A DNA stretch of 63,129 bases from NCBI GenBank assembly GCA_001794755.1, contig MGKT01000002.1:1-63129 (forward strand), read 5' to 3'. This document shows, in pieces, positions 5,960 to 63,129 of this stretch. The position numbers and the translations under genes are program-made. The notes beneath the pieces were generated by a model, which saw only the letters and a program-made list of their open reading frames with translations, did not search any database and was not told where the DNA came from. Positions within the stretch are counted from its first letter, which is position 1. Each line of letters opens with the position of its first letter. Source of the DNA: Candidatus Yanofskybacteria bacterium RIFCSPLOWO2_02_FULL_44_18 (GTDB taxonomy: Bacteria; Patescibacteriota; Minisyncoccia; 2-02-FULL-40-12; GWA2-44-9).

Positions 5960-5966
5960 CTATCGC

Positions 5967-6539: not shown

Positions 6540-6561
6540 TAGTGGTAAAGTAACAAATCAT

Positions 6562-7590: not shown

Positions 7591-7709
7591 TTGCCTTTAT
7601 TTTATCAACATTTCTGCTTGCATTTTCTGCTTTCGAAAGTGTTAAAATGCAGTTGTGATTAAGAATAAAAAGTCCTCGATTCATCGAGGCAGGGAATGGA
7701 GGTGTCTAC

Positions 7710-8393
7710 ATGATTGAAGTTGTAATGGCATCAGATATCGTCAGGTCATCGCTGGTTACCCTGTGGGCCGGCGTCGCTGGTTTCGTCCCTCGGCTTGTCG
7801 CCGCTATTGTTGTATTCATCGTCGGCTGGATTATCGCTGTCTTGCTGGGCAAAGTTGCTTACCATATTATTCGTGTTTTGCATATTGACGCGGCATTATC
7901 ACGCGTCGGATTCAGAAGAGCTTGGGAAAAAAGCGGATTCCGCTTAGATACTCCCAAGTTCTTTTATGAATTGGTAAAATGGTTCTTTATCGTCGTCTTC
8001 TTGATGGCGTCAACGAATATAATGGGTTTGGATCAGGTTACCGAATTCCTGCGAACCGTCGTCTACTATATTCCTAACGTAATAGTGGCCACGTTGATAC
8101 TTTTAATCGGTATCTTGGTTGCCAAATTCCTGGAAGATTTAGTTCGGGCATCGGTTAAGGCGGCGGGATTGGTATCTGGAAATTTCCTGGGCGCGTTAAC
8201 CAAGTGGTCAGTATTTATCTTCAGCTTCCTTATCGCTTTGGATCGCTTGCAGGTGGCCGGAGATATAATAAAAATTCTCGTTACAGGATTGATTGCGGCC
8301 GGCGCATTGGCTGCCGGATTGGCCTTTGGCCTTGGCGGAGCCAAGCATACTGAAGAAGCACTGGCTAACCTTAAAAAGAGAATCGGGGAGTGA
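7710..8393 (+). CDS. MscS-associated TM-helix repeat membrane protein (CmpX-like)
   Basis: Repeated (F/Y)(V/I)P...A..I...G....K helices; ALAFGLGG C-terminus; SD ggaggtg. Confidence 0.8.
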   Translation: MIEVVMASDIVRSSLVTLWAGVAGFVPRLVAAIVVFIVGWIIAVLLGKVAYHIIRVLHIDAALSRVGFRRAWEKSGFRLDTPKFFYELVKWFFIVVFLMASTNIMGLDQVTEFLRTVVYYIPNVIVATLILLIGILVAKFLEDLVRASVKAAGLVSGNFLGALTKWSVFIFSFLIALDRLQVAGDIIKILVTGLIAAGALAAGLAFGLGGAKHTEEALANLKKRIGE

Positions 8394-8397
8394 TTCC

Positions 8398-8433
8398 AAA
8401 CTAAAATCCGCTCACAAAGGCGGATTTTAGTTT
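8398..8433. terminator. Bidirectional intrinsic terminator
   Basis: AAACTAAAATCCGC / GCGGATTTTAGTTT 14-bp stem between convergent genes. Confidence 0.8.
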
Positions 8434-8435
8434 GG

Positions 8436-9008
8436 CTATATTATCTGCAATAATCGAATTTCGGCTTCTTTGAAAACTTGTTTCAATGTTTCATTCTCTT
8501 TTTTTGAAAATTTTGACAAAACGAAATCTCTCACGAACTCATCTCTTTTCTTCTCGGACAGCTGCCGAGCCTTTTGCAGTGATTTGACCGATATGCCCAG
8601 GCGGATGCGGTAGAATTTTTTTGTTTTCAGGGATTTCATAATTGATTCAACGCCCTTGTGGCCGCCGGAATTCTTTTCAAAGGATAATTTCACTTTACCG
8701 AATTCTATATCAAGATCGTCCTGAAATACGATAATATCCTCCGGTTTTGTTTTATAAAAATTCTTTAGCTTGGAAACCGCGTCGCCCGACTTATTAACAA
8801 ATGTAGTCGGCTTGGCGAAAATGACGGAAGTTTTTTCGATCTCGCCTTTGGCAGCATGGCTCAATAATTTAGGTTGGCTTGAAAATTTTTCTAATCCGTA
8901 TTTCCTGGCCAAGAAATCAAGCGCCATAAATCCTATATTGTGCCTTGTTTCCTGGTATTCGGAATCGGGATTGCCCAGACCGATTATTAGTTTTAGATTT
9001 GACTTCAT
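8436..9008 (-). CDS. pth: Peptidyl-tRNA hydrolase
   Basis: LIIGLGNP..Y..TRHNIGF, KPTTFVN.SG, DDLD, GGHKG. Confidence 0.96.
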   Translation of the reverse strand: MKSNLKLIIGLGNPDSEYQETRHNIGFMALDFLARKYGLEKFSSQPKLLSHAAKGEIEKTSVIFAKPTTFVNKSGDAVSKLKNFYKTKPEDIIVFQDDLDIEFGKVKLSFEKNSGGHKGVESIMKSLKTKKFYRIRLGISVKSLQKARQLSEKKRDEFVRDFVLSKFSKKENETLKQVFKEAEIRLLQII

Positions 9009-9056
9009 GCGTTCTCCATTGTAGGATAAAAGAAGCTTTTGTGCAATGAGGTGCTT

Positions 9057-9278
9057 ATGGTATCCCTTAAACTACATTCGCCTCCGTGCCTTGTTTCCGT
9101 TCCTTACAAAAATCTGGAAAATATGGATAATTTTTTTGATGACGCGGGATTTAAGTGTGTCGCTCGAGGAAATAGCCTTGGCCATCTGGTTTTGCCCCAA
9201 AGAGCCGGCGAATTTACGAGCCATATTGTACAGCCGCTGAATCCTGAAAAAAGAGTTCTAAAGATATTCAGGCCCTGA
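9057..9278 (+). CDS. Small orphan protein (73 aa) with own SD and terminator
   Basis: GAGGTG at 9048-9053 before ATG 9057; AGGCCC/GGGCCT hairpin plus T-tract at the stop. Confidence 0.5.
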   Translation: MVSLKLHSPPCLVSVPYKNLENMDNFFDDAGFKCVARGNSLGHLVLPQRAGEFTSHIVQPLNPEKRVLKIFRP

Positions 9279-9309
9279 TTGCGGAGGGGCCTTTTGTTTT
9301 GTCCTAGAT

Positions 9310-9921
9310 ATGGTAAAATGCATGTCAATGTCCGAACAGGAACTCAATAATGACAGGCAAAATCAAGGATTCGGCGACGAGATTAAGTCTTTTTTCTGGG
9401 AAACATTCAAAGTTGTCTTTTTGGCCCTTATAATAATCCTTCCCATCCGCTACTATGTGATGCAGCCTTTTTTTGTTAAAGGCGCGTCAATGGAGCCGAA
9501 TTTTGAGGATGGCGACTATCTTTTAATCGACGAATTGAGCTATCAATTCGGCAATCCCGAGAGAGGCGATGTCATCGTTTTCCGATATCCGCTGGATCAC
9601 CGCCAGTTTTTCATCAAACGGGTAATAGCTCTGCCGGCTGAAACGGTTGAAATTAAAGAAAATATGGTTAAGATATACAACAAACAAAATCCCGGCGGAT
9701 TTGTTTTGAAAGAACCATATCTCGAACCGAATCAGAAAACGATAGGAAATATGGTCGTAAAACTGGACGATAACGAGTACTTTGTTTTGGGCGACAACCG
9801 CCTGGAAAGCTCCGACTCCCGCCGCTGGGGAGCGGTCAACAAATCGTTAATTACCGGCCGAGCTTTCATCCGGCCTTGGCCAGTTTCCAAAATCTCAAAA
9901 ATTCCGGATGTCGCATATTGA
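9310..9921 (+). CDS. lepB: Signal peptidase I (true start may be a downstream Met)
   Basis: V.G.SM.PNF..GD, FIKRVI, YFVLGDNR..SSDSRRWG. Confidence 0.95.
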   Translation: MVKCMSMSEQELNNDRQNQGFGDEIKSFFWETFKVVFLALIIILPIRYYVMQPFFVKGASMEPNFEDGDYLLIDELSYQFGNPERGDVIVFRYPLDHRQFFIKRVIALPAETVEIKENMVKIYNKQNPGGFVLKEPYLEPNQKTIGNMVVKLDDNEYFVLGDNRLESSDSRRWGAVNKSLITGRAFIRPWPVSKISKIPDVAY

Positions 9922-9923
9922 AC

Positions 9924-11192
9924 ATGTCTAAGAAAGGAAAACCAATCGATCCCCCCAAAGGCATTTCCACGATTTTGCCCGAGGATCAGAAATATTACCG
10001 GTATATCTTAAAGAAAGCCGAAGCCATATTTGATTATTACGGCTTTGAGAGAATCGATGCCGGCATATTGGAATCATCAGACGTATTCACGCGGACAATG
10101 ACCGCGGATTCAGATGAAGAAAAAGAACTCTTTTCTTTCAAAACCAAAAACAGCGAGTATCTGGCCTTAAAATATGACAATCAAGTTTCCGTAGCCCAGG
10201 CGTATATCAACAATGGAATGAACTCCCGGCCTCACCCGGTAAAACTTTTTTACGTTTCCTCTTCCTTCAGGAATATTGAGGGTAGGCGGCAAACATTGGA
10301 AATGGGAGTGGAAACGATAGGGGACGATTCGGAAATAATAGACGCCGAGCTCATATTCATGGCTCACAAACTCATTGAAAGCATGTCAATCGGAGAATAC
10401 AGCGCTTACGTGAACAGTATGGGCGAATCTTCATGCCGCCCGGCGTATATTCGCGCCCTTAAAGACTATTTCAAGAATAAATCGAAAAAACTTTGCTCGG
10501 CCTGCCGGGATAATCTAAAAACCAATCCTTTAAAAATTCTCAATTGCCAAGTGGAAACTTGCAAAGAAGTAAACAAAGAAGTGCCGCAAACGGTGGACTA
10601 TCTTTGCGATGAATGCCACGTCCATTTCAAGCATACTCTTGAATACCTCGACGAAGTCGGCGTGCCGTATATTCTGAATCCGATTTTAATAAGAGGGCGG
10701 GAGTATCATACTAGAACGGCATTTGATTTTATTTCCGATGCCAATCCGGAATTAGCACCCGTGATTCAGGGCGGACGCCATGATCGTTTGATTGACACCT
10801 TGGGCGGATCAAGAACGCCGGCGGCCGGCTGGACCATGAATCTGGACCAGATTGTAACCGCTTTAAAGGAAAAGCAGGCTAGTGTGCCGGACGGAAAAAT
10901 AAAACCTAAAATTTTCTTGATTCAGCTTGGCGAAATGGCCAAAAAGAAAAGCCTGATTCTTTTTGAGAATTTCCGAAAAGCTGGAATTGAAGCCAAATCT
11001 TCCCTAGGCCGAGACAGCATTAAGTCGCAATTGCGGATAGCCCATAGGCTGGGCGTTAAATTCGCTCTGATATTCGGACAGAAAGAGGCTTTAGACAACA
11101 CCATGATTGTCAGGGAAATAAATACGGGAGTCCAGGAAACGATTCCGGTGGAAAAAATAATAGAGGAAATTAAAAAGAAACTGAAAACATGA
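9924..11192 (+). CDS. Histidyl-tRNA synthetase-like protein with degenerate catalytic motifs
   Basis: HisRS architecture (PPKG, YGF, Cys-rich insert, GGR.D.L, C-terminal anticodon-binding domain), but RPEGT is KYDNQ and the motif 3 Arg is Gln. Confidence 0.8.
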   Translation: MSKKGKPIDPPKGISTILPEDQKYYRYILKKAEAIFDYYGFERIDAGILESSDVFTRTMTADSDEEKELFSFKTKNSEYLALKYDNQVSVAQAYINNGMNSRPHPVKLFYVSSSFRNIEGRRQTLEMGVETIGDDSEIIDAELIFMAHKLIESMSIGEYSAYVNSMGESSCRPAYIRALKDYFKNKSKKLCSACRDNLKTNPLKILNCQVETCKEVNKEVPQTVDYLCDECHVHFKHTLEYLDEVGVPYILNPILIRGREYHTRTAFDFISDANPELAPVIQGGRHDRLIDTLGGSRTPAAGWTMNLDQIVTALKEKQASVPDGKIKPKIFLIQLGEMAKKKSLILFENFRKAGIEAKSSLGRDSIKSQLRIAHRLGVKFALIFGQKEALDNTMIVREINTGVQETIPVEKIIEEIKKKLKT

Positions 11193-11545
11193 TTACGGAC
11201 GTTTTCTGCAAAATCATAAAAGGCGAACTGCCGGCGGATAAGGTATATGAGGACAAAGACTACTTTGTCGTTAAGGATATTGCGCCCCAAGCACCGGTCC
11301 ATCTTTTGATTATTCCCAAAAAACATTTTGAAGCTCTGCATGATTTCAAAAATTCCGACGCCGAACTTTTAGGCAAGGCTTTGCTTGTGGCCGAAAAAGT
11401 CGCAAAAAAAATGGGCATCCATGACAAGGGCTATCGCCTCATCATCAACGAAGGCGTCCATGGCGGAAAGCTTGTGCCGCACCTCCATATTCATCTTCTG
11501 GGCGGCAAACGGCTTGGTGCGAAACTAGTAAAACAGGATATTTGA
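11189..11545 (+). CDS. HIT family nucleotide hydrolase (Hint)
   Basis: FCKII, DIAPQAPVHLLIIPKKH, PHLHIHLLGG histidine triad. Confidence 0.95.
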   Translation: MITDVFCKIIKGELPADKVYEDKDYFVVKDIAPQAPVHLLIIPKKHFEALHDFKNSDAELLGKALLVAEKVAKKMGIHDKGYRLIINEGVHGGKLVPHLHIHLLGGKRLGAKLVKQDI

Positions 11546-11592
11546 GTTAGAACATGAAATGGTGTAAGATGTAAGTGAAAAGGAGGTATTTT

Positions 11593-11859
11593 ATGGTTGA
11601 AGTTAAAAGAAAACCAAATGAATCAATCGGCAGTCTAATGCGCCGATTCAATCGCTTTGTCCAGCAAAGCGGAGTTTTGATTAAAGCCAAAAAAACGCAG
11701 TTTAGAATAAAGAAAGAAACCGATAGAAAAGAAAAGCTATCGGCCATTATGGGCATGCATTTAAGCCAGCTGAGGAGAAAACTCGAGAAAATGGGTAAAT
11801 ACGACGATGAAACGTTCGAACTGGAAAAGCGCAAATTAAAACAGGAACTGGATATATAA
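11593..11859 (+). CDS. rpsU: 30S ribosomal protein bS21 (C-terminally extended)
   Basis: SD AGGAGG; VEVKRK.NES..SLMRRF.R; next to yqeY as is typical. Confidence 0.75.
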   Translation: MVEVKRKPNESIGSLMRRFNRFVQQSGVLIKAKKTQFRIKKETDRKEKLSAIMGMHLSQLRRKLEKMGKYDDETFELEKRKLKQELDI

Positions 11860-12344
11860 TGCTAAAAGAAAAAATTCAAGCGGATATTAAAGAAGCGATG
11901 AAATCGGGAAATTCTGAAAAGAAAATGGTTTTAAGCTTGGTACTCAACGCCATTAAGAACAAAGAACTCGAAAAAAGAACTCAATTAAGCAAAACCGAAC
12001 AAGACCCGGCGATTCTTGAAGAGAAAAGCAAACTGAGCGAAGACGAGGTCGTTTCGGTCATATCTTCAGAGGTCAAAAAAAGAAAAGAATCAGCCCAAAG
12101 CTTTAAAAGCGGGGGCCGTCCCGAATTAGCCGAAAAAGAAGAATCGGAAATTAATATTCTGGTTCCGTATTTGCCCGAGCAAATGAGCGAAGAAGATATT
12201 CGGGCGGAAGTTAAAAAAACAATTTCTGAATTGAGCGCGGGACCAAAAGACGCGGGCAAGGTAATCGGTTCGGTAATGGCCAGAGTAAAGGGCAAAGCCG
12301 ACGGTCAGGTGGTAAGCAAATTAGTAAAGGAGGAGTTGGGATGA
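11859..12344 (+). CDS. GatB/YqeY domain protein
   Basis: I..AMKS, EVKKRKESA..F..GGR.ELAEKE..E..IL..YLP.Q, G.ADG..V. Confidence 0.93.
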   Translation: MLKEKIQADIKEAMKSGNSEKKMVLSLVLNAIKNKELEKRTQLSKTEQDPAILEEKSKLSEDEVVSVISSEVKKRKESAQSFKSGGRPELAEKEESEINILVPYLPEQMSEEDIRAEVKKTISELSAGPKDAGKVIGSVMARVKGKADGQVVSKLVKEELG

Positions 12345-12787: not shown

Positions 12788-14001
12788 TATCCGGAATTGA
12801 CATCGGAAACTCGCAAGTTAAGGCCGTAATCGCCAAAATCGAACGGAATTCTTCGCGGCCGGAAATAATCGGATTCGGGAACTCGCCGTCACTTGGTTTA
12901 AGGCGGGGCATGGTCGTGGATATGGAAGAAACGATTGACAACGTTCGAACCGCTGTCCATCGCGCCCAAACCATGGCCGGGGCGAGTATTCAAAGAGCCT
13001 ATGTCTCCGTGAACGGGCTGCATATCGGCAATCAAACGTCGCGCGGAGTGATTGCCGTATCCCGAGCCGATAATGAAATATCTCAGAACGATATTGATCG
13101 CGTCGTCCAGGCTGCATCCGTCGTCAGTCTTCCGGCAAATAGGGAAATAATTCACGTCATTCCCCGAAATTATATTGTTGACGGCACCGAGAATGTTAAA
13201 AATCCGTTAGGGATGAAGGGCGTCCGTTTAGAAGCCGAAGTATTCATAATCGACGGCCTATCTCCCCATATTCGCAATATCGCCAAATGCGTAAATGAAA
13301 ACAATATCGAAGTGGCCGGTCTGGTTTTCGCTCCGGTTGCTGCGGCGATGGCGGTTTTGGATAAAAATCAGAAGGAATACGGCGTTTTGCACTTGGATTT
13401 CGGCGGCGGAACCTCGACGCTCACGGTCTTTGAAGAGGCCGACTTATTGCACACCTCGGTGCTTCCCATCGGCTCAAAGCATATAACAAATGACTTGGCC
13501 ATCGCGCTAAGGACGTCTTTGGACGTCGCCGAAAAAATCAAGCTTGATTACGGCGCGACTTCAGAAACCGAAGATTTGCGGCGCAAAGACATGATTGATC
13601 TTTCCGCACTTTTAGCCGAAGAAAATTTCGTAGTTTCTAAAAAACAATTAATCAAAGTCGTGGATGCGCGCGCCCATGAGTTGATGGATATGGTCAACGC
13701 TGAAATGAAAAAGATTTCCCGGAACGGGATGCTTCCGGCCGGCATTGTTTTAAGCGGCGGCGGATCAAATTTACCCGGGTTCGCCATGCTTGTGAAAGAG
13801 GCGCTTAAGTTGCCGGTCCGGTTGGCGACGACTCTCAATATGACCGGAGCCGAAAATGTCAGCGATCCGTCGTATGCCGTCGGCCTGGGTCTCGTAGCAT
13901 GGGGTTTCGAAAAAGAATTCAGCAAGGGTCAAAAAGGCCCCAGCGGAAACAATAGATTCATTAGTAATGTAGTTAGGTGGTTCAAAAATTTTATGCCCTG
14001 A
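12769..14001 (+). CDS. ftsA: Cell division protein FtsA
   Basis: GIDIG..QV, GLRRG.VVD, NPLGM.GVRLE, DFGGGT, P.G..HITNDLA. Confidence 0.96.
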   Translation: MGKPYLISGIDIGNSQVKAVIAKIERNSSRPEIIGFGNSPSLGLRRGMVVDMEETIDNVRTAVHRAQTMAGASIQRAYVSVNGLHIGNQTSRGVIAVSRADNEISQNDIDRVVQAASVVSLPANREIIHVIPRNYIVDGTENVKNPLGMKGVRLEAEVFIIDGLSPHIRNIAKCVNENNIEVAGLVFAPVAAAMAVLDKNQKEYGVLHLDFGGGTSTLTVFEEADLLHTSVLPIGSKHITNDLAIALRTSLDVAEKIKLDYGATSETEDLRRKDMIDLSALLAEENFVVSKKQLIKVVDARAHELMDMVNAEMKKISRNGMLPAGIVLSGGGSNLPGFAMLVKEALKLPVRLATTLNMTGAENVSDPSYAVGLGLVAWGFEKEFSKGQKGPSGNNRFISNVVRWFKNFMP

Positions 14002-14018
14002 GTCCGTTTTCAACAGAA

Positions 14019-14027
14019 TTATCCACA
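14019..14027 (+). promoter_or_regulatory. Consensus DnaA box in the ftsA-ftsZ intergenic region
   Basis: Perfect TTATCCACA; function unproven. Confidence 0.5.
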
Positions 14028-14150
14028 GAAAATGAGTTGCCGGTTGCAACTCATTTTTATTTGTGATAATACGAGATAACGAAAACAGCGCTGACAAAGA
14101 AATTGCCTTTCGGAGATACGATAAAATTTCACCCAGTCATCAATATTAAT

Positions 14151-15317
14151 ATGCCTCAGATTAAACCTCAATTTGAAACATTTGCCCGAATAAAAGTCGT
14201 TGGCGTCGGCGGTTCGGGCAATAACGCGCTTAGCCGGATGATTGAAGCCAGAATCCACGGCGTCGAATTTATTGCCGTGAATACGGACGCCCAGGCACTG
14301 CATACATCCAACGCGCCGATAAAAATACATATTGGAAAGAGCCTCACTAAAGGGTTGGGAGCGGGCATGAATCCGGAAATCGGCCGCCAAGCCGCCGAGG
14401 ACACGAAAGAAGAAATAATGAACGCTCTTAAAGGGGCGGATATGGTTTTCATAACATGCGGCATGGGGGGCGGCACCGGAACGGGAGGCGCACCCGTGGT
14501 GGCGGACATTGCTCGCGAAGTCGGAGCTCTGACTGTGGCCGTTGTCACAAAGCCGTTCAGTTTCGAAGGGGCGCAGAGAATGAGAATTGCCGAGGAAGGC
14601 TGGAATACTTTGCGCGATAAAGTCGATGCCTTAATCACAATTCCCAACGACAGGCTGCTTTCAATAATCGACCGCAAGACTCCGCTTTTGGAATCCTTCG
14701 CCATCGTTGATGATGTGTTGAGACAGGGCGTCCAGGGCATTTCCGATTTAATCACTATTCCCGGTATCATTAATGTTGATTTTGCGGATGTTAAAGCAGT
14801 CATGGTTAACTCCGGTTCGGCGTTGATGGGTATTGGCCGGGCTAGCGGAGAAGACAGGGCAATTGAGGCGGCCAAGATGGCAATTAATTCTCCCTTGCTG
14901 GAAGTTTCGATTGACGGAGCCCGAGGAGTGCTTTTCAACGTGTCGGGCGGCACGGACATGGCTATGGCTGAAATCAACGAAGCGGCCCGGATTATTACCG
15001 AACACATTGATCCCGATGCCAAAGTAATATTCGGCGCCGTTATCGACGACAAGTTAAAGAAAGGGGAGATAAAAATAACCGTTGTCGCCACCGGTTTTTC
15101 CAATTTGGGTGTTTCACCGAGACCGGCCGGGTACGATGCCGGGCCAAGCCTGTTTGAAACAATCAAGAAACAGCAGAATCAGATATATGCCGATGGCCCC
15201 CGAAATTCACAGCCTCAAGTTCAAGATCCCGCTCCGGTGAAAGAATTCGTTGACGCGTCTGTTGAAGAAGAACAATTTGACATTCCCGCGTTTATTAGAA
15301 GAAAGATGAAGAACTAG
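14151..15317 (+). CDS. ftsZ: Cell division protein FtsZ
   Basis: [21 protein letters not shown] signature, INVDFADV, C-terminal DIPAFIR. Confidence 0.98.
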
Positions 15318-15331: not shown

Positions 15332-16180
15332 TCAGATTGACGGGGAGACAGCTTCGGAATTATCGGCGGAAGCCGGTTTTTGTTTTGGAGTAAGAAGATG
15401 CCAGGCGTTCAAGTATTGATAGACGTTCACTTTTATTTTCGGTTTTGAATGATAATCAGAATAACCATCAAGTGGGACATTGAATGAAAAGTGTTCCCTC
15501 GTATCAAGAATATGACGAATGGGAAATATATATAATGAATATACGCTTTCTGATATGGTAATGCATAGCCAATAATCATCAACAATTCTTTTGGTATACT
15601 CACAGAACTTGTAATATCCTGAAGATGGATTCGCGGTTTTTATTGCACAGACCCACTCATTAATTTGAATTGTAATTTTTCCGTGTGAGCTTTTCAGATG
15701 GCCGATCTTAAAGCCTGTTTTTTTGATTTCATCGATTAGCCACTTAATTACAGATCTTGATTTAATGTCATTTACTTTATCTTCTTCTTTTTTTCTTTTT
15801 AAAAAAGCTCGGGTCTTAATCGTGCAGACTTTCGTTCGTTGATGGCCGCGTACACGGAAGGGCAATATCAATGAGAATTCCTGCCTAATTTGGCGAACTC
15901 TCTCCTTAGAGATATTAAGTTGGTTGGCAATTTGTGCAAAAGACATACAATCATTTCTGAACCAAGCCATGAGGGTGTCGGCGTTAACGGGACTACCGTT
16001 TGCGTCTACGTAATTGCGTTTTCCGATTATTTTTCTCGCCATATCAATCGATTTGAAATATATCCTTTGCTTAATATAAAAGCATATTGAACAGACAAAC
16101 TTTCCATCAACGAATCTATTTCTAATATTTCTCCACTTTTTGCGTCCGCACTTTGAACAAATTAAGGCGTTTTCAGCCAT
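15332..16180 (-). CDS. AT-rich hypothetical protein with N-terminal Zn finger and sigma70 region 4-like HTH
   Basis: CSKC...CSIC; FAQIANQLNISKERVRQI; opposite strand and lower GC than neighbours. Confidence 0.7.
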   Translation of the reverse strand: MAENALICSKCGRKKWRNIRNRFVDGKFVCSICFYIKQRIYFKSIDMARKIIGKRNYVDANGSPVNADTLMAWFRNDCMSFAQIANQLNISKERVRQIRQEFSLILPFRVRGHQRTKVCTIKTRAFLKRKKEEDKVNDIKSRSVIKWLIDEIKKTGFKIGHLKSSHGKITIQINEWVCAIKTANPSSGYYKFCEYTKRIVDDYWLCITISESVYSLYIFPIRHILDTREHFSFNVPLDGYSDYHSKPKIKVNVYQYLNAWHLLTPKQKPASADNSEAVSPSI

Positions 16181-16231
16181 ATTTACTGTCCTTTCAATGA
16201 GCTTGCGCGATTATATCACCAAGACCCGGAA

Positions 16232-16240
16232 TTATCCACA
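16232..16240 (+). promoter_or_regulatory. Consensus DnaA box upstream of nrdJ
   Basis: Perfect TTATCCACA about 100 nt before the nrdJ start. Confidence 0.5.
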
Positions 16241-16342
16241 TTTGGCAATTCCGACACAGCTGTTAAACTAGGATTACCTTAAAAGCCCCCTAACCAAAAA
16301 CTGGCTTCGAGATGCTTGCCAGTTTAAATTTTTGATTTTGCC

Positions 16343-19117
16343 ATGGAACATCAACCAAATCTTTTAAATCCGGTCGGAGAGCCAAAACATTTTGGCAATG
16401 GCCACGCTAAAGATCTTGCCGATCCGGGAAACAGGAAAAGAGGAATCGTTTGGCCAAGATTATTCGGTTTTGGCAATCCTTATGATGATATCGTTTGGGA
16501 AAAAAGGACCGCGAAGATAACGAAGGGAGACGGAACCGTAGTTTTTGAACAAAATGAAGTGGAAGTTCCTAATTTTTGGAGTCAAACGGCAACGGATATT
16601 GTAGCGTCAAAATATTTCAGGGGCAGATCGGATTCTCCTGATCGTGAGTTTAGCGCCAAGCAGATGGTGGACCGAGTGGCCAAAACGGTCGGTTACTGGG
16701 GCATGAAAGACGGGTACTTTGCCACGGCCGCAGATTGTGAAAATTTCATTGATGATTTGCGCTATTTATTAGTCAATCAGTATTTTGCCTTCAACTCGCC
16801 GGTTTGGTTTAACGTTGGCGTGCAGGAAAAACCCCAATGTTCAGCATGTTTTATCTTAGCCGTGGAAGATACGATGGATTCTATTCTTGAGTGGTATCAC
16901 GACGAAGGTAAAATTTTCCAACGCGGTTCGGGGTCGGGTTTGAATGTTTCCAAATTGCGCTCCTCTAAAGAACCATTATCAAAAGGAGGATTTTCTTCCG
17001 GGCCGGTTTCTTTCATGAAAGGAGCTGATGGTGTGGCCAACTCAATCAAATCGGGCGGGGCCACAAGAAGGGCGGCCAAAATGGTAGTAATGAATACTGA
17101 TCACCCGGATTTGAAAGATTTTATATATTGTAAAAAAGTTGTTGAGGATATGACAAAAGCTTTGGCTGTCGCCGGCATAAAAGATTCGATTGCCGCCGAG
17201 CTTTTTGATCCCTACACGCTACTCCCTTACCAGAATGCCAACAACTCGGTCAGAGTTACCGATGAATTCATGCGTTCTCTTGAAGCAGACGGATACTGGG
17301 ATCTTAAGGCAGTCACAACCGGAAATACTTTGGAAACAGTTAAGGCCCGGGAAATTATGGATTGGATAACCGATGCTGCTTGGCATAGCGCGGATCCGGG
17401 TATTCAGTATGACACCACAATCAACGAATGGCATACTTGCCCCAATACCGGCCGTATCAACGCTTCTAATCCTTGTAGTGAATACATGCATCTTGACAAT
17501 TCGGCTTGCAATTTAGCATCTCTTAATCTTTTGAAATTTTTGAAAGAGGGTGGAAAATTAAATGTTGAGTTGTTCAAAAAAGCGGTGGATACTGTTATTT
17601 TGGCACAGGATATTTTGGTTGATAATTCTTCTTATCCAACCCCGAAAATTACGCAAAATGCCAAGGATTATCGGGAGCTTGGCTTGGGCTATGCGAATTT
17701 AGGAGCGTTGTTAATGGTTTTGGGCTGGCCGTACGATTCCGATGGCGGCCGGGCTTTGGCCGGGCATATTACTTCTTTAATGTGCGGCGAGGCCTATCGA
17801 ATGTCGGCCCTGCTGGCTGATGTTAAGGGTTCTTATGCGGGATTTGAAAAAAATAAAGCGCCCCAATTAAACGTCATTTCAAAGCATCTGGCGGCGGCTG
17901 AAAAACTTTATGAGGAATCGCAATCGGCCGGTCTTAATGATGTTGAACTGCAAACTGCGTCGCGGCTGGTATGGCACGAAGCTTTGGATATGGCCAGGCA
18001 CACCGGTATTCGCAATTCACAGATGACCGTGCTCGCGCCAACCGGCACCATCGCTTTTTTAATGGACTGCCAGACGACAGGCATTGAACCGGATTTAGCC
18101 CTTGTAAAATACAAAAAACTGGTTGGTGGAGGTACTTTGAAATTAATTAATAATCAGGTGCCTTTGGCTCTATCACGCTTGGGTTATGCGAATCAAGAGA
18201 TAGAAGAAATTTCTAATTTCATTTTGGAAAAAGACACTATTGAGGAAGCGCCTCATCTTAAGCCTGACCATCTGCCTGTTTTTGATTGTTCTTTCCGTCC
18301 CATTAACGGCCAACGCAGTATCAGTTGGCAAGGTCATGTCAAAATGATGGCCGCGGCCCAGCCTTTCATCTCCGGCGCAATATCAAAAACGGTTAATCTG
18401 CCGGCCGATGCCACCAGAGAAGACATTAAGAATGTATTTATTGAAGGCTGGCGCTTAGGATTAAAAGCCATTGCCGTCTATCGCGACGGATGTAAATCAA
18501 TTCAGCCGTTGAATTTATCGAACAACGATAAGTTCGTGGAACGTTCGAATGGATACACAAGAATTAAACTGCCGGACGAGCGGCCGGCTGTCACTCACAA
18601 ATTCAAAGTGGCCGGCCATAAGGGTTATTTGACTGTCGGATTATACCCGGAAACAAACCAGCCCGGCGAGACGTTTCTAACCATCGCCAAGGAGGGAAGC
18701 ACCATATCGGGATTGCTTGACGTAATTGCGACCATGACATCAATTTGCCTCCAATCCGGCGTCCCCCTTAAAACTCTGGTTAATAAATTTAAAGACATGA
18801 GATTTGATCCGGCCGGGTTCACGACAAATCCCGAAATACCTATGGCCAAATCAGTCGTTGACTACATGTTTAGATATATGGGCATGAAATATCTTAATGC
18901 GTCCGACAGAGAAGAGTTGTTTGGAATGCCGAACACGGATAACAGTATGGAAAATCGGGCAGATTTTATTCAGGCCCCGGCCGTTCAGGCATCTCATGCT
19001 CATATAACTACGAATATGGACGCGCCGGCTTGCGGAAACTGCGGGACATTGATGGTCAAGGCCGGATCATGTTACTCTTGCCCAAATTGCTTCACGACGA
19101 CGGGAGTTTGTAATTAA
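16343..19117 (+). CDS. nrdJ: Class II (adenosylcobalamin-dependent) ribonucleotide reductase
   Basis: FNSPVWFN, QCSACFI, GATRRAAKM, NPCSEY, APTGTI, GAISKTVN, C-terminal TSCPD-like domain and Zn ribbon. Confidence 0.96.
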   Translation: MEHQPNLLNPVGEPKHFGNGHAKDLADPGNRKRGIVWPRLFGFGNPYDDIVWEKRTAKITKGDGTVVFEQNEVEVPNFWSQTATDIVASKYFRGRSDSPDREFSAKQMVDRVAKTVGYWGMKDGYFATAADCENFIDDLRYLLVNQYFAFNSPVWFNVGVQEKPQCSACFILAVEDTMDSILEWYHDEGKIFQRGSGSGLNVSKLRSSKEPLSKGGFSSGPVSFMKGADGVANSIKSGGATRRAAKMVVMNTDHPDLKDFIYCKKVVEDMTKALAVAGIKDSIAAELFDPYTLLPYQNANNSVRVTDEFMRSLEADGYWDLKAVTTGNTLETVKAREIMDWITDAAWHSADPGIQYDTTINEWHTCPNTGRINASNPCSEYMHLDNSACNLASLNLLKFLKEGGKLNVELFKKAVDTVILAQDILVDNSSYPTPKITQNAKDYRELGLGYANLGALLMVLGWPYDSDGGRALAGHITSLMCGEAYRMSALLADVKGSYAGFEKNKAPQLNVISKHLAAAEKLYEESQSAGLNDVELQTASRLVWHEALDMARHTGIRNSQMTVLAPTGTIAFLMDCQTTGIEPDLALVKYKKLVGGGTLKLINNQVPLALSRLGYANQEIEEISNFILEKDTIEEAPHLKPDHLPVFDCSFRPINGQRSISWQGHVKMMAAAQPFISGAISKTVNLPADATREDIKNVFIEGWRLGLKAIAVYRDGCKSIQPLNLSNNDKFVERSNGYTRIKLPDERPAVTHKFKVAGHKGYLTVGLYPETNQPGETFLTIAKEGSTISGLLDVIATMTSICLQSGVPLKTLVNKFKDMRFDPAGFTTNPEIPMAKSVVDYMFRYMGMKYLNASDREELFGMPNTDNSMENRADFIQAPAVQASHAHITTNMDAPACGNCGTLMVKAGSCYSCPNCFTTTGVCN

Positions 19118-57945: not shown

Positions 57946-60900
57946 ATGTTATCAAGTATAAAACTAAAAATCGCGTCGCCGGAGGACATTATGTCCTGGT
58001 CTTATGGCGAGGTAACCAAGCCGGAGACCATCAACTATCGAACCCAGAAGCCGGAGAGAGAGGGTTTGTTTTCCGAAGCCATATTCGGTCCGGTTAAAGA
58101 TTGGGAATGTTATTGCGGCAAATACAAGCGCATTAGATACAAGGGAATAATATGCGATCGCTGCGGAGTCGAAGTCACCAGATCCATAGTCCGCAGAGAA
58201 AGAATGGGCCATATTAAATTAGCCGCTCCGGTGGCCCATATTTGGTTTCTGCGCGGCGTACCTTCGAAGATTGCATCAATCTTGGGCGTTTCTTTGCCGG
58301 AACTTGAAAAGGTCGTGTATTTCGCCAGTTATGTCATTATCAAAGTCAACGAGGATTTGAAGGTTGAAGCCATGAAAAGAGTTGAATCGGAATTTAAATC
58401 CCGCATTAAAAACGCGCAGAATACTGAAGAAGAGGAAAATCTCAAACAGTTGAAGGACAGAGAGAGGAATAATTTAAAGAATTTAAGGAAGTATCAAATC
58501 ATTTCCGAACTTGATTTTCGGGATTTATCCACGAAGTACGGGGAAGTTTTTGAAGCTGGAATCGGAGCCGACGCCATCCACAGACTGCTGACTGAAATTC
58601 AGCTGGATCAATTAATCGTAAGTCTGGATGGGGAATTGAAGAATGAAGGTAATCCGCTGGAAATCAAAAAAATGTCCCGCCGCTTGAAATTCTTGAAAGG
58701 CATGAACAAGGCCGGCATCAGGCCGGAGTGGATGATTATAACAATCCTGCCCGTCATTCCGCCGGCTCTGCGGCCGATGGTGCCTTTGGACGGCGGCCGC
58801 TATGCCACGTCAGATTTAAATGATTTATACCGCCGCGTCATTAACCGCAACAACAGGTTAAAACATCTTTTGGAATTAAAGGCCCCCGAAGTCATAACCA
58901 AGAACGAAAAAAGAATGCTTCAGGAAGCGGTTGATGCTTTGATTGACAACTCAATGAGGCGAGGCCAGATTACGACAGCGGCATCCACCGGCCAGAAGAG
59001 AGCGTTAAGGTCTCTGGCTGATATGCTTAAAGGCAAACAAGGCCGTTTTCGGCAGAACTTGCTCGGAAAAAGAGTAGACTATTCAGGCCGGTCAGTCATC
59101 GTTGTCGGCCCGAAATTGGGCATAGAGGAATGCGGTCTACCGAAACACATGGCTCTGGAATTGTTCAAGCCGTTTGTAATCGGCATTCTTATCCGCCGGG
59201 AATTGGCGCATAACATCAAATCAGCCAGTCGTTTAATCGACCAGGAAACGTCGGACGTCTGGTCGGCTTTGGAAGAGGCAATGGCCGGCAAATTGGTTTT
59301 ATTAAATCGCGCTCCGACTCTGCACCGTTTGTCAGTCCAGGCCTTCAAACCGATATTGATAGAAGGAAAAGCCATTAAAATTCCGGCTCTGGTAACGAAC
59401 GCGTTTAACGCCGATTTTGACGGCGACCAGATGGCGGTTCATTTGCCTTTGACCCAGGGCGCCCAAGAGGAAGCCCGCACTTTAATGATGTCCAGTTTCG
59501 GAATATTGAAGCCGGCGACGGGAGACCCAGTGGCCGTCCCCAAGAACGATGTTGTTTTGGGCTGCTATTATCTGACTACCGTAAAAGAAGGCGGTAAAGG
59601 TGAAGGCAAGATATTCTCCGGCCAAACCGAAGCACTGTATGCTCACGATGTCGGCGTCATAGACTTAAGGGCCAAGATAAAAATTCCCAATAAAGAAGAA
59701 GGTGAGAATAAATTAATGGAAACGACAGCCGGCAGAATAATTTTCAACAGATCTTTGCCCAAAGGCCACCGTTTCATAAACAAAGCCTTAGCCCGTTCGG
59801 ACCTTAGAACCATCGAGTCGGATATTTGGGATGAATATCCCCATGAAGTGGTTGTAAATTTCTTAAACACGATTTCCAATCTTGGTTTTCATTACGCCAC
59901 CATATCCGGCTTGTCTTGGGGCATTGATGACTTGAAAACTCCAAAAGACAAGCCTGCCATTATCGCCGAAGCCGACAAACAAATTGACGAGAATGTCAGA
60001 TTGTACGAAGAAGGATTGCTGACCGCGTATGAGAGAAAGGCTAAAGCTATTGAAATATGGAATAACGCCAAGAATAAAATAGGCCAGCTGATTAAAAAAG
60101 AACTTGATCCAAATAACCCGGCGGTCATGATGGTTGAATCAGGCGCCCGCCGAGGCGATCTTAATCAAATGATGGGAATGAGAGGCATATTCGCCAATCC
60201 GTCCGGCGAGCTGATTGAACTTCCGGTCCGCAATTCATTCAAAGAAGGTCTTCTGCCTCTTGAGTATTTCATATCCACCCACGGAGCCCGAAAAGGATTG
60301 GTGGACACGGCCTTGAAGACGGCCACGGCCGGATACTTGACTCGCCGCTTGGTTGACGTGGCTCAAGATGTCGTTGTCGTGGAGGAAGACTGCAAAGACA
60401 AAGAAGGCTATGTTCTGCACGCTGATGACAGCAAATACAGCGGCGAACAAATCCCTCGTCGCTTGAAGGGACGGGTAATAATGGAAGACATAATTGATCC
60501 CGTTTCGGGCGACATTGTGGTTAAAAAAGGCAAGATTGTCGACAAAGAGGCGGTTAAGAAAATAGAAAATTTCGGAATACAAAAAATTAAAATTAGATCG
60601 CTTTTGACGTGCAAATCAGCAACCGGGGTCTGCCGCCAATGCTACGGCTATGATCTTTCTAAAAATAAGTTAGTTGAGATTGGCGAAGCGGTCGGTATCG
60701 TCACCGCCCAGGCCATCGGCGAACCGGGAACCCAGCTTACGATGAGGACATTCCATACCGGAGGCGTAGCCGGAGGCGCCGACATTACCATGGGTCTGCC
60801 CCGAGTCGAAGAAATATTGGAATCCCGCCCGCCCCAATTTAAAGCTCTGATTGCCGATGCCGACGGCACCGTGTTAAACGTGGACGACAAGGGCAAACAA

Positions 60901-61524
60901 AGAGTAATACAAATAGAGACGTCCGAAGGCGAAAAAGTCGAATACGCAGTCGCCCCCAATATTGCAATATCGGTGGCGGCCGGCGATTTGGTTGCTCGGG
61001 GCCAGCAATTAAGCGAAGGCAATGTTGATATTAAAGAACTCTTTGCCACAACAAATGACGTAAATCTTGTGGCTCGGCAGATTATACGGGAAGTTCAGAG
61101 TATTTATGCTCCGACCGGAGACAGCATCAATGATAAGCACGTAGAATTGATTACCAGACAGATGTTCTCGAGGGTTAAGATAATGGATCCGGGAGACACC
61201 GATTTGCTTTCGGGCGATATTGTTGAGAAGAGACGGCTTTGGATGGAAAATGCCCGAGCCAAAAACGATAAAAAAAGAGAAGCGACATTCGAACAATTAT
61301 TGCTCGGCATTACCAAAGTATCGTTGACGACAGACAGTTTCTTGTCTTCCGCTTCCTTCCAGGAAACAGCTAAAGTATTAATCGAAAGTGCCACTATTGG
61401 CAAGGAAGATCATCTCCGCGGTCTCAAAGAAAACGTCATTATCGGTCGCCTCATTCCGGCTGGCACTGGCTACAATATTGACCACGGCGCCGTGGAAGAA
61501 CAACTAGCCGCCAACATCGAGTAA
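57946..61524 (+). CDS. rpoC: DNA-directed RNA polymerase subunit beta'
   Basis: KPETINYRT, C.CGKYK, NADFDGDQMAVH, GEPGTQLTMRTFH. Confidence 0.99.
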   Translation: MLSSIKLKIASPEDIMSWSYGEVTKPETINYRTQKPEREGLFSEAIFGPVKDWECYCGKYKRIRYKGIICDRCGVEVTRSIVRRERMGHIKLAAPVAHIWFLRGVPSKIASILGVSLPELEKVVYFASYVIIKVNEDLKVEAMKRVESEFKSRIKNAQNTEEEENLKQLKDRERNNLKNLRKYQIISELDFRDLSTKYGEVFEAGIGADAIHRLLTEIQLDQLIVSLDGELKNEGNPLEIKKMSRRLKFLKGMNKAGIRPEWMIITILPVIPPALRPMVPLDGGRYATSDLNDLYRRVINRNNRLKHLLELKAPEVITKNEKRMLQEAVDALIDNSMRRGQITTAASTGQKRALRSLADMLKGKQGRFRQNLLGKRVDYSGRSVIVVGPKLGIEECGLPKHMALELFKPFVIGILIRRELAHNIKSASRLIDQETSDVWSALEEAMAGKLVLLNRAPTLHRLSVQAFKPILIEGKAIKIPALVTNAFNADFDGDQMAVHLPLTQGAQEEARTLMMSSFGILKPATGDPVAVPKNDVVLGCYYLTTVKEGGKGEGKIFSGQTEALYAHDVGVIDLRAKIKIPNKEEGENKLMETTAGRIIFNRSLPKGHRFINKALARSDLRTIESDIWDEYPHEVVVNFLNTISNLGFHYATISGLSWGIDDLKTPKDKPAIIAEADKQIDENVRLYEEGLLTAYERKAKAIEIWNNAKNKIGQLIKKELDPNNPAVMMVESGARRGDLNQMMGMRGIFANPSGELIELPVRNSFKEGLLPLEYFISTHGARKGLVDTALKTATAGYLTRRLVDVAQDVVVVEEDCKDKEGYVLHADDSKYSGEQIPRRLKGRVIMEDIIDPVSGDIVVKKGKIVDKEAVKKIENFGIQKIKIRSLLTCKSATGVCRQCYGYDLSKNKLVEIGEAVGIVTAQAIGEPGTQLTMRTFHTGGVAGGADITMGLPRVEEILESRPPQFKALIADADGTVLNVDDKGKQRVIQIETSEGEKVEYAVAPNIAISVAAGDLVARGQQLSEGNVDIKELFATTNDVNLVARQIIREVQSIYAPTGDSINDKHVELITRQMFSRVKIMDPGDTDLLSGDIVEKRRLWMENARAKNDKKREATFEQLLLGITKVSLTTDSFLSSASFQETAKVLIESATIGKEDHLRGLKENVIIGRLIPAGTGYNIDHGAVEEQLAANIE

Positions 61525-61533
61525 GATTTCATC

Positions 61534-61562
61534 TAAAAACCGCTTTTAGAAGGCGGTTTTTA
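61534..61562 (+). terminator. Intrinsic terminator after rpoC
   Basis: AAAAACCGC / GCGGTTTTT hairpin. Confidence 0.8.
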
Positions 61563-61577
61563 GCGTCTCAAAATGTC

Positions 61578-61606
61578 TTGACGAAAGGCTCTTTTTGTGA
61601 TACCAT
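61578..61606 (+). promoter_or_regulatory. Promoter of the RT gene
   Basis: TTGACG - 17 bp - TACCAT with TG extension; SD AAGGAGG follows. Confidence 0.7.
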
Positions 61607-61644
61607 TTGTGGGTTCTTAACAAACAGGCTCAAAGGAGGGCCAT

Positions 61645-62958
61645 ATGGCCAAAAAGGCCAAGAAACCGCGGGGCACAGCCCCGGAAGAACAGAAGAAGCG
61701 TCGCCGCCGTCGCAAGGAGTGGACGTTTACGAATTTCCAGAACGTTCTGGCGCTGCCCGAACGGCTGGCGACGTATCTACGTCTTCTTCTGCACCTGGAC
61801 AAAACGTCCTGGGACTTCTGTCTCGACAAACTCCGCCAGCACGTGAAGTGGGAAGCGGAGGTTGAGGACAAGCGTCCCAAGGTGCAAATCAACGTCAAGG
61901 GTCGCGAGCGCACCTCGCGCAGCGGTCCGGCGTATCTTGCATGGTCCAAGTCAAAGGGCCGCGGCAAGGGCCGTCGGTACTTTGCGGCGCCGTGCGATGA
62001 GCTGGGTCGGGTTCAGAAATCGATTCTGCACCGATTCATCTCGCAGGTGTTCGTTCACTTCGCCCGCTACGGCGGACAAGTCGGCTCGAGCATCATGGCG
62101 AATGCCGGGCATCACGCCGGATTCGCAAAGTCAGTGTTCTCACTGGACATCGTCAACGCGTATCCGACGGTGTATCGAAGCCGGGTTCGCGCGACGCTGC
62201 GAAAGCCGTTCGAGTTCGCACTGCGGCAGTTCAAGGGCGTGACATTCTCAGAGGAAGATGTGTTGAAGATGCTTGACAGCATCACCGACCTCATCGTTTT
62301 CAAGGATCGTCTACCCCAAGGACCGCCGACATCGCCTCGGGTCTTCGATATCGTCTGCGGTAAGATGGACCAGGAGATCTTCCAATGGCTGGAATCGAAC
62401 GCGACGCCCTTTCAGGGGTATCGCTACAGCGCCTGGACTGACAACCTGACCATTTCGTCCGACGGCGAGATTCCGCTGGAGGTCCGACAGAAGGTCATCG
62501 AAATCGTCCGCGAGAATGGGTTCTTCCCGCACATGCGCGAGGACAAGATGAAGTATTTCTCGCCGGAGACAGGCGAACGGCCAATCGTAACCGGGCTCGT
62601 GGTTCTGCCTGATGGCCGGATTACGATGGCGCCGCGCAAGGTCAACCAGCTCCGGGCTCGGCTTCACCAGCTCATGCTCCGCAAGGCATGGGATAAAGAG
62701 GCGATGATGCTCATCGACGGTACGATCGGATTCGTTCGGGAGATTTATCCGAAAAATCTGCCGTCGAAGCTTCGTGATGTTGTCTTGGCTGTTGAAGCCC
62801 GACGGGCTTCGATGCGAGTGCCCGTCGTTCATGACGAGTCGATCGAAGATGAAGATGCGATCATGCTCGACGAGGATCCGGAAACCAAGGTCCCGAGTCC
62901 GTCCAAGAAGAAGGACGAGGGACCCACGGAAACCGTCTCGGAAGTTGTTCTGATGTAA
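61645..62958 (+). CDS. Retron-family reverse transcriptase with atypical WTDN active-site motif
   Basis: R.FAAP..EL..VQ..I, SI.ANAGHH (NAxxH), SLDIVNAYPTV, LPQGPPTSP, YSAWTDNLTIS, IVTGLVV (VTG). Confidence 0.9.
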   Translation: MAKKAKKPRGTAPEEQKKRRRRRKEWTFTNFQNVLALPERLATYLRLLLHLDKTSWDFCLDKLRQHVKWEAEVEDKRPKVQINVKGRERTSRSGPAYLAWSKSKGRGKGRRYFAAPCDELGRVQKSILHRFISQVFVHFARYGGQVGSSIMANAGHHAGFAKSVFSLDIVNAYPTVYRSRVRATLRKPFEFALRQFKGVTFSEEDVLKMLDSITDLIVFKDRLPQGPPTSPRVFDIVCGKMDQEIFQWLESNATPFQGYRYSAWTDNLTISSDGEIPLEVRQKVIEIVRENGFFPHMREDKMKYFSPETGERPIVTGLVVLPDGRITMAPRKVNQLRARLHQLMLRKAWDKEAMMLIDGTIGFVREIYPKNLPSKLRDVVLAVEARRASMRVPVVHDESIEDEDAIMLDEDPETKVPSPSKKKDEGPTETVSEVVLM

Positions 62959-62966
62959 GTTGTTCA

Positions 62967-63129
62967 CCCTCCTTTGAGTAATGAATCAGTTTTCTTGACT
63001 GCCAACACGCGTTGGAAGTAGCGCTTCTGCGTTACGCACCAGCGGGTCGCTTGTAGCCAATCCTGCAACGGGATTGGTGAGACCGCAGTCCGTAGAGAGT
63101 GCGATTCACCTGACAGCGTAGCTGTCAGC
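62967..63129 (+). ncRNA. Candidate structured ncRNA downstream of the RT (truncated by window end; strand uncertain)
   Basis: Nested stems TGAATC/GATTCA and GACTG/CAGTC enclosing several hairpins, plus CTGACAGC/GCTGTCAG; anti-SD 12-mer at its 5' end. Confidence 0.5.

Follow-up and report, generated by a model that had tools for sequence, protein, structure and literature searches.

Introduction

Retrons are described as one reverse transcriptase (RT) with one non-coding RNA (ncRNA) lying upstream of it. In known retrons, reverse transcription is primed beside the stem formed by the terminal repeats a1 and a2 of this RNA, which has one to three short msr hairpins and a long msd stem-loop, and the multicopy single-stranded DNA (msDNA) is branched, being primed from the 2'-OH of a conserved G beside a1/a2. 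Long-range masking of ribosome-binding sites is known from other systems, i.e., the fold-back (fbi/tac pairing) of hok/sok and the fold-back inhibition of the IS10 transposase. Here, we analyzed a contig stretch of Candidatus Yanofskybacteria bacterium RIFCSPLOWO2_02_FULL_44_18 (MGKT01000002.1, 63,129 nucleotides (nt), forward strand, hereafter the window), in which a perfect 12-nt inverted repeat encloses the gene of a retron-clade RT and includes its Shine-Dalgarno (SD) sequence. Our preferred explanation, to which we give somewhat less than an even chance, is that a lineage-specific fold-back helix masks the SD of the RT in completed transcripts that contain the RT and the first ncRNA unit, beside the priming stem of that unit.

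Retron ncRNAs have an msr-msd layout, with hybridising terminal repeats, short msr hairpins, and a long msd stem-loop (PMC7736814). The signatures of retron RTs, region X (NAxxH) and region Y (VTG), were defined by Mestre et al. 2020 (PMC7736814), where type XIII is associated with a WH-SWIM protein (cluster 114), usually together with a HEAT/ARM-repeat protein. Engineered retron arrays are known as 'multitrons' (PMC10370050), and chaperone couples of MoxR and vWA proteins, known from conflict systems, have been linked to diversity-generating retroelement (DGR) RTs and proteolytic cascades (Kaur et al. 2020, PMC7159879). In the candidate phyla radiation (CPR), RTs were reported in a review as mostly DGR-type (PMC8632793).

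A Perfect Inverted Repeat around the RT Gene

The three features at the center of this analysis are the following:

61629..61640, + strand: 5' arm of the inverted repeat, containing the SD; read from the sequence, pairs with 62967-62978 with a probability (P) of at least 0.96 in the full-transcript fold
61645..62958, + strand: retron-clade RT of 437 amino acids (aa); from PADLOC, NCBIfam, a PDB profile, and motifs
62967..62978, + strand: 3' arm of the inverted repeat, anti-SD-like CCCTCCTTTGAG, within the 22-24-nt spacer from the RT stop to ncRNA unit 1

The first-pass annotation of this DNA had reported a perfect 12-nt inverted repeat around the RT open reading frame (ORF), and both its coordinates and its description were correct: the 5' arm is CTCAAAGGAGGG, the 3' arm is its exact reverse complement, and the two are the sole matches in the window when up to one mismatch is allowed. 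The same annotation had located the SD inside the 5' arm and the 3' arm 8 nt past the RT stop. Both statements agreed with the sequence, where AAGGAGGG at 61633-61640 stands 4 nt ahead of the ATG at 61645, and the TAA at 62956-62958 is followed by the arm from 62967 onward. A G·U pair between 61628 and 62979 lengthens the helix to 13 bp, and a C/A mismatch terminates it on the inner side.

The length of the repeat by itself was not significant, and its placement was unusual. The window contains 19 perfect inverted repeats that are 12 nt or longer and have their arms up to 2 kb apart, against 8.8 ± 2.9 in dinucleotide shuffles. For the placement, the start region (-25 to +6) was compared with the stop-proximal flank, i.e., the last 20 nt of the ORF and the stop codon plus the following 50 nt. 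None of 1000 dinucleotide-shuffled flanks reached 12 nt against the start region (p ≈ 0.001), and among 176 control genes from the same genomes a complement of 8 nt was found in 5.1%, of 10 nt in 1.1%, and of 12 nt in none. A rough arithmetic of our own gives a probability of 0.004-0.009 that one window contains any gene with such a placement by chance, and a few chance cases are therefore expected when many windows are scanned.

These numbers bear on a competing explanation, that the complementarity is fortuitous or a by-product and has no regulatory role, with a very strong SD (AAAGGAGGG) facing a spacer made pyrimidine-rich by the GTTCYTTT and TTTCCTT motifs before the units. We consider this a realistic possibility that stays well below an even chance. 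The surplus of repeats in the window, with only about 9 expected, speaks for it, but the per-gene chance of 12 perfect pairs between start region and stop flank is about 1e-4 (again our arithmetic), in keeping with the shuffles and control genes above, and the extra CTC/GAG pairs are not explained by a resemblance between SD and anti-SD.

The 3' arm could also be read on the other strand, as the SD of an antisense gene, so that one ribosome-binding site sequence would be used twice. The minus strand indeed reads CTCAAAGGAGGG and then at once a GTG that opens a 218-aa ORF (62311-62967, minus strand). However, this GTG overlaps the last G of the SD-like sequence, giving zero spacing, which is incompatible with initiation; no other start codon is found close downstream, and the ORF lies opposite a conserved coding region of high GC content, a setting in which long ORFs often arise spuriously. 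We regard this reading as exceedingly improbable.

Predicted Transcript and Folding

Longer contigs with an identical RT (L001-L005) extend the locus to the right, and a window coordinate equals the L001 coordinate plus 51644. The window itself ends 151 nt past the 3' arm, about 150 nt into unit 1 of a 2.2-kb array of ncRNA units. The elements that define the predicted transcript are:

61578..61606, + strand: sigma-70-like promoter TTGACG-17-TACCAT with a TG extension; from a promoter scan (L001 9934-9962) and consensus match
61613..61618, + strand: GTTCTT box, predicted 5' end of the RT mRNA; recurs ahead of RT starts in the family
62981..63129, + strand: 5' (msr-like) domain of ncRNA unit 1, cut by the window end; match of covariance model R1 at 62981-63108, 88.3 bits, E = 1.5e-20
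62983..62993, + strand: a1 arm GAATCAGTTTT of unit 1; from the unit fold and the full-transcript minimum free energy (MFE) structure

Transcription of the RT mRNA is predicted to start near 61613. No terminator was called between the RT and unit 1, and strong ones were called after units 1, 2, and 5, the one directly after unit 1 having a 12-bp stem. Given the promoter and the lack of a terminator between the RT and unit 1, both arms are therefore predicted on one transcript of about 1.7 kb, in which about 32 nt of leader would precede the RT ORF and about 22 nt of spacer would separate the ORF from unit 1 and its terminator.

In the equilibrium fold of this 1683-nt predicted transcript, all 12 pairs of the repeat were present in the MFE structure, with P of 0.96-1.0. 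For nascent transcripts whose 3' end lay 14 nt or more before the end of the arm, the mean P(unpaired) of the SD was 0.51-0.63, and it fell to 0.00 once the 3' arm was included. The change of the SD from open to closed is thus clean in silico. The repeat helix coexisted in the fold with the a1/a2 stem of unit 1, at a distance of 3 nt.

On the fold-back explanation, the promoter at 61578-61606 would drive a single transcript of leader, RT ORF, spacer, and unit 1. During RNA synthesis, the SD would be open and the RT translatable. As the polymerase moves past the stop codon, CCCUCCUUUGAG would pair with the SD-containing CUCAAAGGAGGG (12 Watson-Crick pairs and one G·U), looping out the 1.3-kb ORF and covering the ribosome-binding site, and finished transcripts would be translationally quiet. 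Since the helix lies 3 nt from a1/a2 of unit 1, and priming in known retrons takes place beside that stem, events at unit 1, i.e., RT binding, reverse transcription, or RNA processing, could feed back on RT synthesis. We infer both the effect on translation and this coupling from the predicted structure; silencing of RT translation by fold-back is plausible and unproven.

An Array of ncRNA Units Downstream of the RT Gene

On L001, the RT gene is followed by 2.2 kb without a called gene, then by the gene of an AAA_5 ATPase and by a gene for a 560-aa protein. The gene-less stretch consists of seven units in tandem, each 256-349 nt long, and two further units lie between the ATPase gene and the 560-aa gene, giving nine on this contig. 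The array covers 62981-63129 of the window and continues over L001 11337-13528 and 14768-15239. It is the real anatomical context of the 3' arm.

From its 5' end, each unit consists of a unit-specific arm of 7-12 nt, the conserved TTTGCTTGACCG, a variable hairpin, a covarying helix with a hairpin that ends in GCGGTCC, a long stem-loop that is variable and rich in GC, the motif TC[C/T/A]ATC, and the reverse complement of the first arm. Unit 1 in full spans L001 11337-11616, with the a2 partner AAAACTGATTC at L001 11602-11612, beyond the window end. An invariant G is found in the conserved CTTGAC right after a1 of the units. As modeled, these units match the msr-msd layout of retron ncRNAs, but they are placed downstream of the RT and arrayed.

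In an RNAalifold analysis, 20 unit 5' domains shared 17 pairs, of which 12 showed compensatory changes, and the covariance model R1 was built from these 20 domains, replacing a motif regular expression that we judged too noisy. This model gave 96 matches, all on the RT strand and all downstream of the RT, in 25 of 26 family loci, and zero matches in six distant retron loci. Among the 81 distinct unit matches, 92.9% of cells were paired, compared to 75.5% in shuffles (0 of 500 reached the observed value) and to 34-40% when the partners were slid; 14 of the 17 pairs had changed on both sides, in an alignment that was itself fitted to the covariance model. Moreover, 61 of 74 units were each closed by a separate perfect repeat of 8 nt or more (median 9, against about 5.8 in the null), and these 74 units contained 70 distinct a1 sequences.

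The units decide on another reading proposed in the first-pass annotation, in which the flagged repeat would be an a1/a2-like duplex that closes the ncRNA and has the RT ORF as a loop within it. Its length is like that of a1/a2 stems, and the RT does belong to the retron clade; however, the arms enclose a protein gene, and the true a1 of unit 1 begins 4 nt downstream of them. Each downstream unit is closed by its own a1/a2 stem around an msr-like and msd-like fold, the 5' domain of the units is conserved and covarying, and the flagged arms are missing from relatives that keep the ncRNA units. The a1/a2 reading was rejected on the unit-closing stems and the unconserved arms, and we give it hardly any probability. 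The repeat helix is neither a retron a1/a2 stem nor a conserved hallmark of the family.

Boxes of the form GTTC[T/C]T(T) were found at L001 11686, 12025, 12914, 13594, and 17131-17137. They precede units 2, 3, and 6 and the ATPase gene, and one sits after the 560-aa gene; those ahead of units 2, 3, and 6 come after a terminator. Upstream of the RT start, within 90 nt, GTTC[T/C]T occurred in 12 of 26 loci, about an 8-fold excess over a background of 0.056 per 90 nt. Judging by these positions, the box probably serves as a promoter or transcription-start element, dividing the array into short transcription units of RT plus unit 1, unit 2, units 3-5, and units 6-7. After the 560-aa gene (L001 17119-17180), a GTTCTTT box is followed by a terminator-like hairpin, GAGGGTGC...GCACCCTC, with a T run; this hairpin holds GCTTGACC...GCGGTC, like a small version of the closing helix that is conserved in the units.

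This layout bears on a further explanation, that the helix is a processing or stability element, either a nuclease site separating the RT mRNA from unit 1 or a shield of the 5' end against decay. A known parallel to such a duplex is provided by the leader-trailer stems in which rRNAs are looped out. The structural evidence is identical to that for fold-back silencing, and the helix stands exactly at the mRNA/ncRNA junction, 3 nt from a1. The remaining units appear to be transcribed separately, as short RNAs with boxes and terminators of their own, and unit 1 may therefore need release from the mRNA. On the other side, 12-13 bp is short for RNase III, whose substrates are usually of about 20 bp, and the helix is unconserved in relatives that likewise have unit 1 directly after the RT. 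We consider a processing or stability role unlikely. The more specific candidate of an RNase III leader-trailer stem of the rRNA-operon type (about 20 bp or more) was rejected, with 12 Watson-Crick pairs and one G·U at hand.

An annotated 113-aa gene (L001 14772-15113) overlaps two ncRNA units (14768-14905 and 15104-15239), and it is probably not real. Rfam showed nothing relevant in the last 8 kb of the window, where one sub-threshold XIST_A match fell inside rpoC, and zero matches on the longer contig. The 2.2-kb array had no BLAST match in 50,697 phage records, so nothing indicates that the variable hairpins copy phage sequence.

Comparison with Related Loci

The comparative set consisted of 26 distinct loci; the closest homologue (P0001, 73% identity, sample ERZ27297570) was not among them. 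Seven contigs with an identical RT (the window, L001-L005, and L044) had no single-nucleotide polymorphisms over the compared 1635-1850 nt, and population variation is therefore uninformative on the arms. Covariation of the arms across homologous loci had been named in the first-pass annotation as a check on a long-range switch, and a lack of conserved complementarity as its refutation. The outcome was divided: such a lack was observed for the two nearest relatives with DNA (L037 and L040), which have no arm, and the family showed a weak enrichment that depended on the control (p 0.009-0.34).

The enrichment came from three measures. When the energies of start-site/stop-region complementarity were computed with RNAduplex, excluding the window locus, they differed from dinucleotide shuffles with a Fisher p of 0.047. 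In whole-transcript MFE structures, at least 10 of 21 start-region nt were paired to the stop-proximal flank in 6 of 26 loci and in 11 of 208 shuffled-flank controls (p = 0.009 with the window locus excluded). Perfect complements of at least 8 nt were found in 4 of the 25 other loci (L012, 10 nt; L017, 9 nt; L014 and L046, 8 nt each), all four on the SD or start codon, against a shuffle mean of 0.9 (p = 0.011); compared with the 5.1% of real genes, p was 0.037, or 0.009 when the window locus was counted. By hand alignment, the related pair L012/L046 keeps a start-codon helix, where the leader differs by A-to-G and the arm by the compensating T-to-C.

Several observations weigh against the fold-back explanation. 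L037 (62% identity) has the SD AGGAGGGCC, a short unrelated spacer, and no CCTCC after the stop, and L040 (60% identity) has a mere 5-nt partial match to the arm. Under stricter controls the family signal was lost: the RNAduplex energies gave a Fisher p of 0.34 against same-locus windows, 0.25 against non-cognate flanks, and 0.28 against non-cognate leaders, and the six loci added last showed no complementarity signal. The position of the partner segment varies by locus, in the last codons, across the stop, or past it. Conserved pyrimidine-rich motifs near the RT stop (the GTTCYTTT box and CAGTTTCCTTGAC) are inherently anti-SD-like and could give a weak signal without selection for pairing. 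In addition, the repeat was chosen post hoc out of a scan, and equilibrium folding of a 1.7-kb RNA leaves out ribosomes, kinetics, and proteins.

The same observations favor a fortuitous origin: the arm is missing in both nearest relatives, the family signal is null against non-cognate or same-locus controls, the candidate was scan-selected, and motifs such as GTTTCCTTGAC are anti-SD-like at several loci. The spacer before unit 1, which holds the 3' arm, also aligns loosely with the GTTCYTTT boxes ahead of units 2, 3, and 6. Against it stands the modest family enrichment over two nulls, which includes helices centered on the start codon that fall outside the motif argument. Collectively, the comparison hints at start/stop pairing as a recurrent, non-universal tendency and not as a conserved element. 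Of the switch suggested in the first-pass annotation, the helix and the masking of the SD were predicted by equilibrium folding, and a pairing shared with L037 and L040 was not found.

The RT and Its Relatives

Among the 34 PADLOC matches of the RT, the best 25 were all to retron RT profiles, with RT_XIII at the top (7.6e-33) and RT_II-A next (4.2e-30). The NCBIfam profile retron_St85_RT matched at 3.7e-34, under the family cutoff, and Pfam RVT_1 likewise scored under its cutoff; the protein is therefore a divergent member of the retron clade. A profile of the 26 family members searched against solved structures gave 12 PDB hits, all of them retron RTs, with the RT of retron Ec86 first (4e-27). 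Region X is present as NAGHH at residues 153-157, with an H invariant in the 26-member family, and region Y as VTG at 315-317, with an invariant G. Judged by these profiles and motifs, the ORF is a divergent RT of the retron clade.

The catalytic motif C reads WTDN instead of YxDD (residues 264-267, window 62434-62445). Of the 26 members, 13 have xDN and 12 have xDD at this motif, and half of the family thus either replaces the second aspartate or does not need it. A C-terminal RNase H domain (PF00075/PF13456) is fused to the RT in P0021, P0042, P0058, P0062, P0074, P0090, and P0091; the maturation of retron msDNA normally depends on the host RNase H.

We collected 94 RT homologues, nearly all from Patescibacteria/CPR assemblies. 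One family locus, L019 (JBDGRK010000035.1), is in a bin labelled Nanohaloarchaea, and L007, L009, L010, L018, and L020 are in bins labelled 'uncultured Gammaproteobacteria'; these are either mis-binned CPR contigs or cases of transfer beyond Patescibacteria. A scan of viral contigs found no relatives, and a metagenome scan with the single RT gave one new identical locus, three known or distant loci, and nothing else.

Two further features were recorded near the RT start:

61533..61563, + strand: inverted repeat I3, a terminator-like hairpin belonging to rpoC upstream, which marks the island's left border
61639..61650, + strand: perfect 12-nt palindrome GGCCATATGGCC centered on the start codon; read from the sequence

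Repeat I3 has 14-nt arms that are 93% complementary and are followed by a T run. It lies after the rpoC ORF (57946-61524), whose identity comes from Pfam RNA_pol_Rpb1 domains on the L001 copy. The palindrome could form a small local hairpin or be a binding site; in L037 and L040 the start codon is bracketed as well, by GGCC...GGCC or AGCC...GGCT.

Partner Genes and Genomic Island

The RT, 0-7 units, the ATPase gene, 0-5 units, and the gene of the 560-aa protein follow one another on a single strand, and this layout was found in 22 of 22 loci long enough to include the partner genes. Loci contained 0-9 units, and the nine of this locus are the maximum. On L001, outside the window, the ATPase gene spans 13483-14772 and the 560-aa gene 15436-17118. 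The ATPase has AAA_5/AAA_3 domains and a CbbQ_C tail, and its profile matches include midasin, McrB, and CobS, so it belongs to the MoxR class. In the protein of about 560 aa, two motifs are invariant, HExxH near residue 90 and a DxSGS of the metal-ion-dependent adhesion site (MIDAS) type near residue 403; the protein matched VWA domains weakly, and its VWA assignment rests on the motif and these matches. Neither protein was matched by PADLOC (PADLOC-DB 2.0.0). Membership in retron type XIII was examined and rejected, the neighbors being the AAA_5 ATPase and the 560-aa HExxH/DxSGS protein.

The cassette occupies about 10000-18000 of L001 (from about 61600 in the window), between rpoC and ftsK, and its GC content is 52-60%, compared to 45-49% in the flanks. 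In other genomes, it lies beside a resolvase, a ParB-methyltransferase, transposase fragments, or housekeeping genes. Its location and GC content are consistent with a mobile defence-type island.

Another reading takes the two arms as the terminal inverted repeats, or as recombination sites, of a mobile element that carries the RT gene alone. The GC-rich island agrees with this, and so do the neighborhoods that vary by genome, at times with recombinase or transposase genes adjoining. Nonetheless, what is conserved as a mobile unit is a cassette of about 6-8 kb, in which the RT is accompanied by the array, the ATPase gene, and the VWA-like gene, rather than a lone RT gene; the arms lie within the transcription unit, downstream of the promoter; the bases flanking them differ (aacagg and taatga), giving no target-site duplication; and relatives do without them. 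An RT ORF excised or inverted exactly at the arms was seen in none of the 26 loci. We hold this reading to be very improbable. The arms were also compared with the terminal repeats of insertion sequences and rejected as such, as they are internal to an island of about 8 kb and the gene they enclose encodes an RT and not a transposase.

Elsewhere in the window, genes for tRNA-Ile(GAT) and tRNA-Ala(TGC) are adjacent at 5808-5960, a pair typical of rRNA operon spacers; an Rfam search of window positions 1-12000 around them found no rRNA gene.

Discussion

The searchable literature, which is incomplete, gave no account of any retron in CPR bacteria or with MoxR/VWA partners, nor of natural arrays of several units or of retron ncRNAs that follow the RT gene; the retron arrays found there were the engineered ones. 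The layout of RT, array, ATPase, and VWA-like protein is undescribed in Rfam, in PADLOC, and in this literature. A broader reading, which we put forward tentatively and think rather unlikely as a whole, is that the locus represents an undescribed retron type of Patescibacteria, in which one RT would act with up to nine different msr-msd units to make several distinct msDNAs, together with a MoxR-type ATPase and an HExxH/VWA-like effector, and in which the RT would be gated by a lineage-specific fold-back. In this broader reading, the fold-back helix would dock the ribosome-binding site of the RT beside the priming stem of unit 1.

If the helix is functional, the translation of a retron RT would be structurally coupled to its own ncRNA, giving a handle on the control of RT dosage, and the repeat would add a new case to a known principle of regulation. 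The conserved tandem arrays of distinct msr-msd-like units after a retron-clade RT provide a context that stands independently of the helix, and they are a natural counterpart of the engineered "multitron" arrays for multiplex genome editing. They raise the questions of whether one RT makes many msDNAs, of what the variable hairpins target, and of whether such compact units could serve as multiplex producers of single-stranded DNA.

Compared with hok/sok and IS10, the locus shares the principle that a far-downstream segment of the mRNA pairs with the initiation region, and here too the nascent form is predicted to be open and the completed one closed. None of the small toxin, overlapping leader ORF, and antisense RNA of hok/sok is present, and the gene concerned encodes a 437-aa RT; hok-type small ORFs were looked for at the RT locus and none were seen. 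The pairing here would be with the SD itself, the 3' arm is not the transcript end, as a 280-nt ncRNA and a terminator come after it, and the repeat helix is unconserved across homologues.

With retrons, the locus shares an RT with NAxxH and VTG, units closed by terminal repeats with short 5' hairpins and a long 3' stem-loop, and accessory genes in the same operon-like cassette. It differs from them in that the ncRNA is downstream and not upstream of the RT, in 0-9 tandem units that differ in sequence, some of them between the accessory genes, in a motif C of the xDN form in half of the family, and in its hosts, the Patescibacteria (CPR). Type XIII provides the nearest RT profile, but the partners here are a MoxR-type AAA+ ATPase and an HExxH/VWA-like protein, and not WH-SWIM and HEAT/ARM proteins.

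As in multitrons, a single RT would act on an array of several msr-msd or msd units that differ in sequence; whereas multitrons are synthetic, this array is natural, is conserved in 25 of 26 loci, and seems to be grouped by boxes and terminators into several short transcription units. Finally, the pairing of a gene for a MoxR-class AAA+ ATPase with a gene for a protein with a DxSGS MIDAS motif, in a probable defence island, resembles the couples of Kaur et al. (PMC7159879), with the difference that it stands here with a retron-clade RT and its ncRNA arrays.

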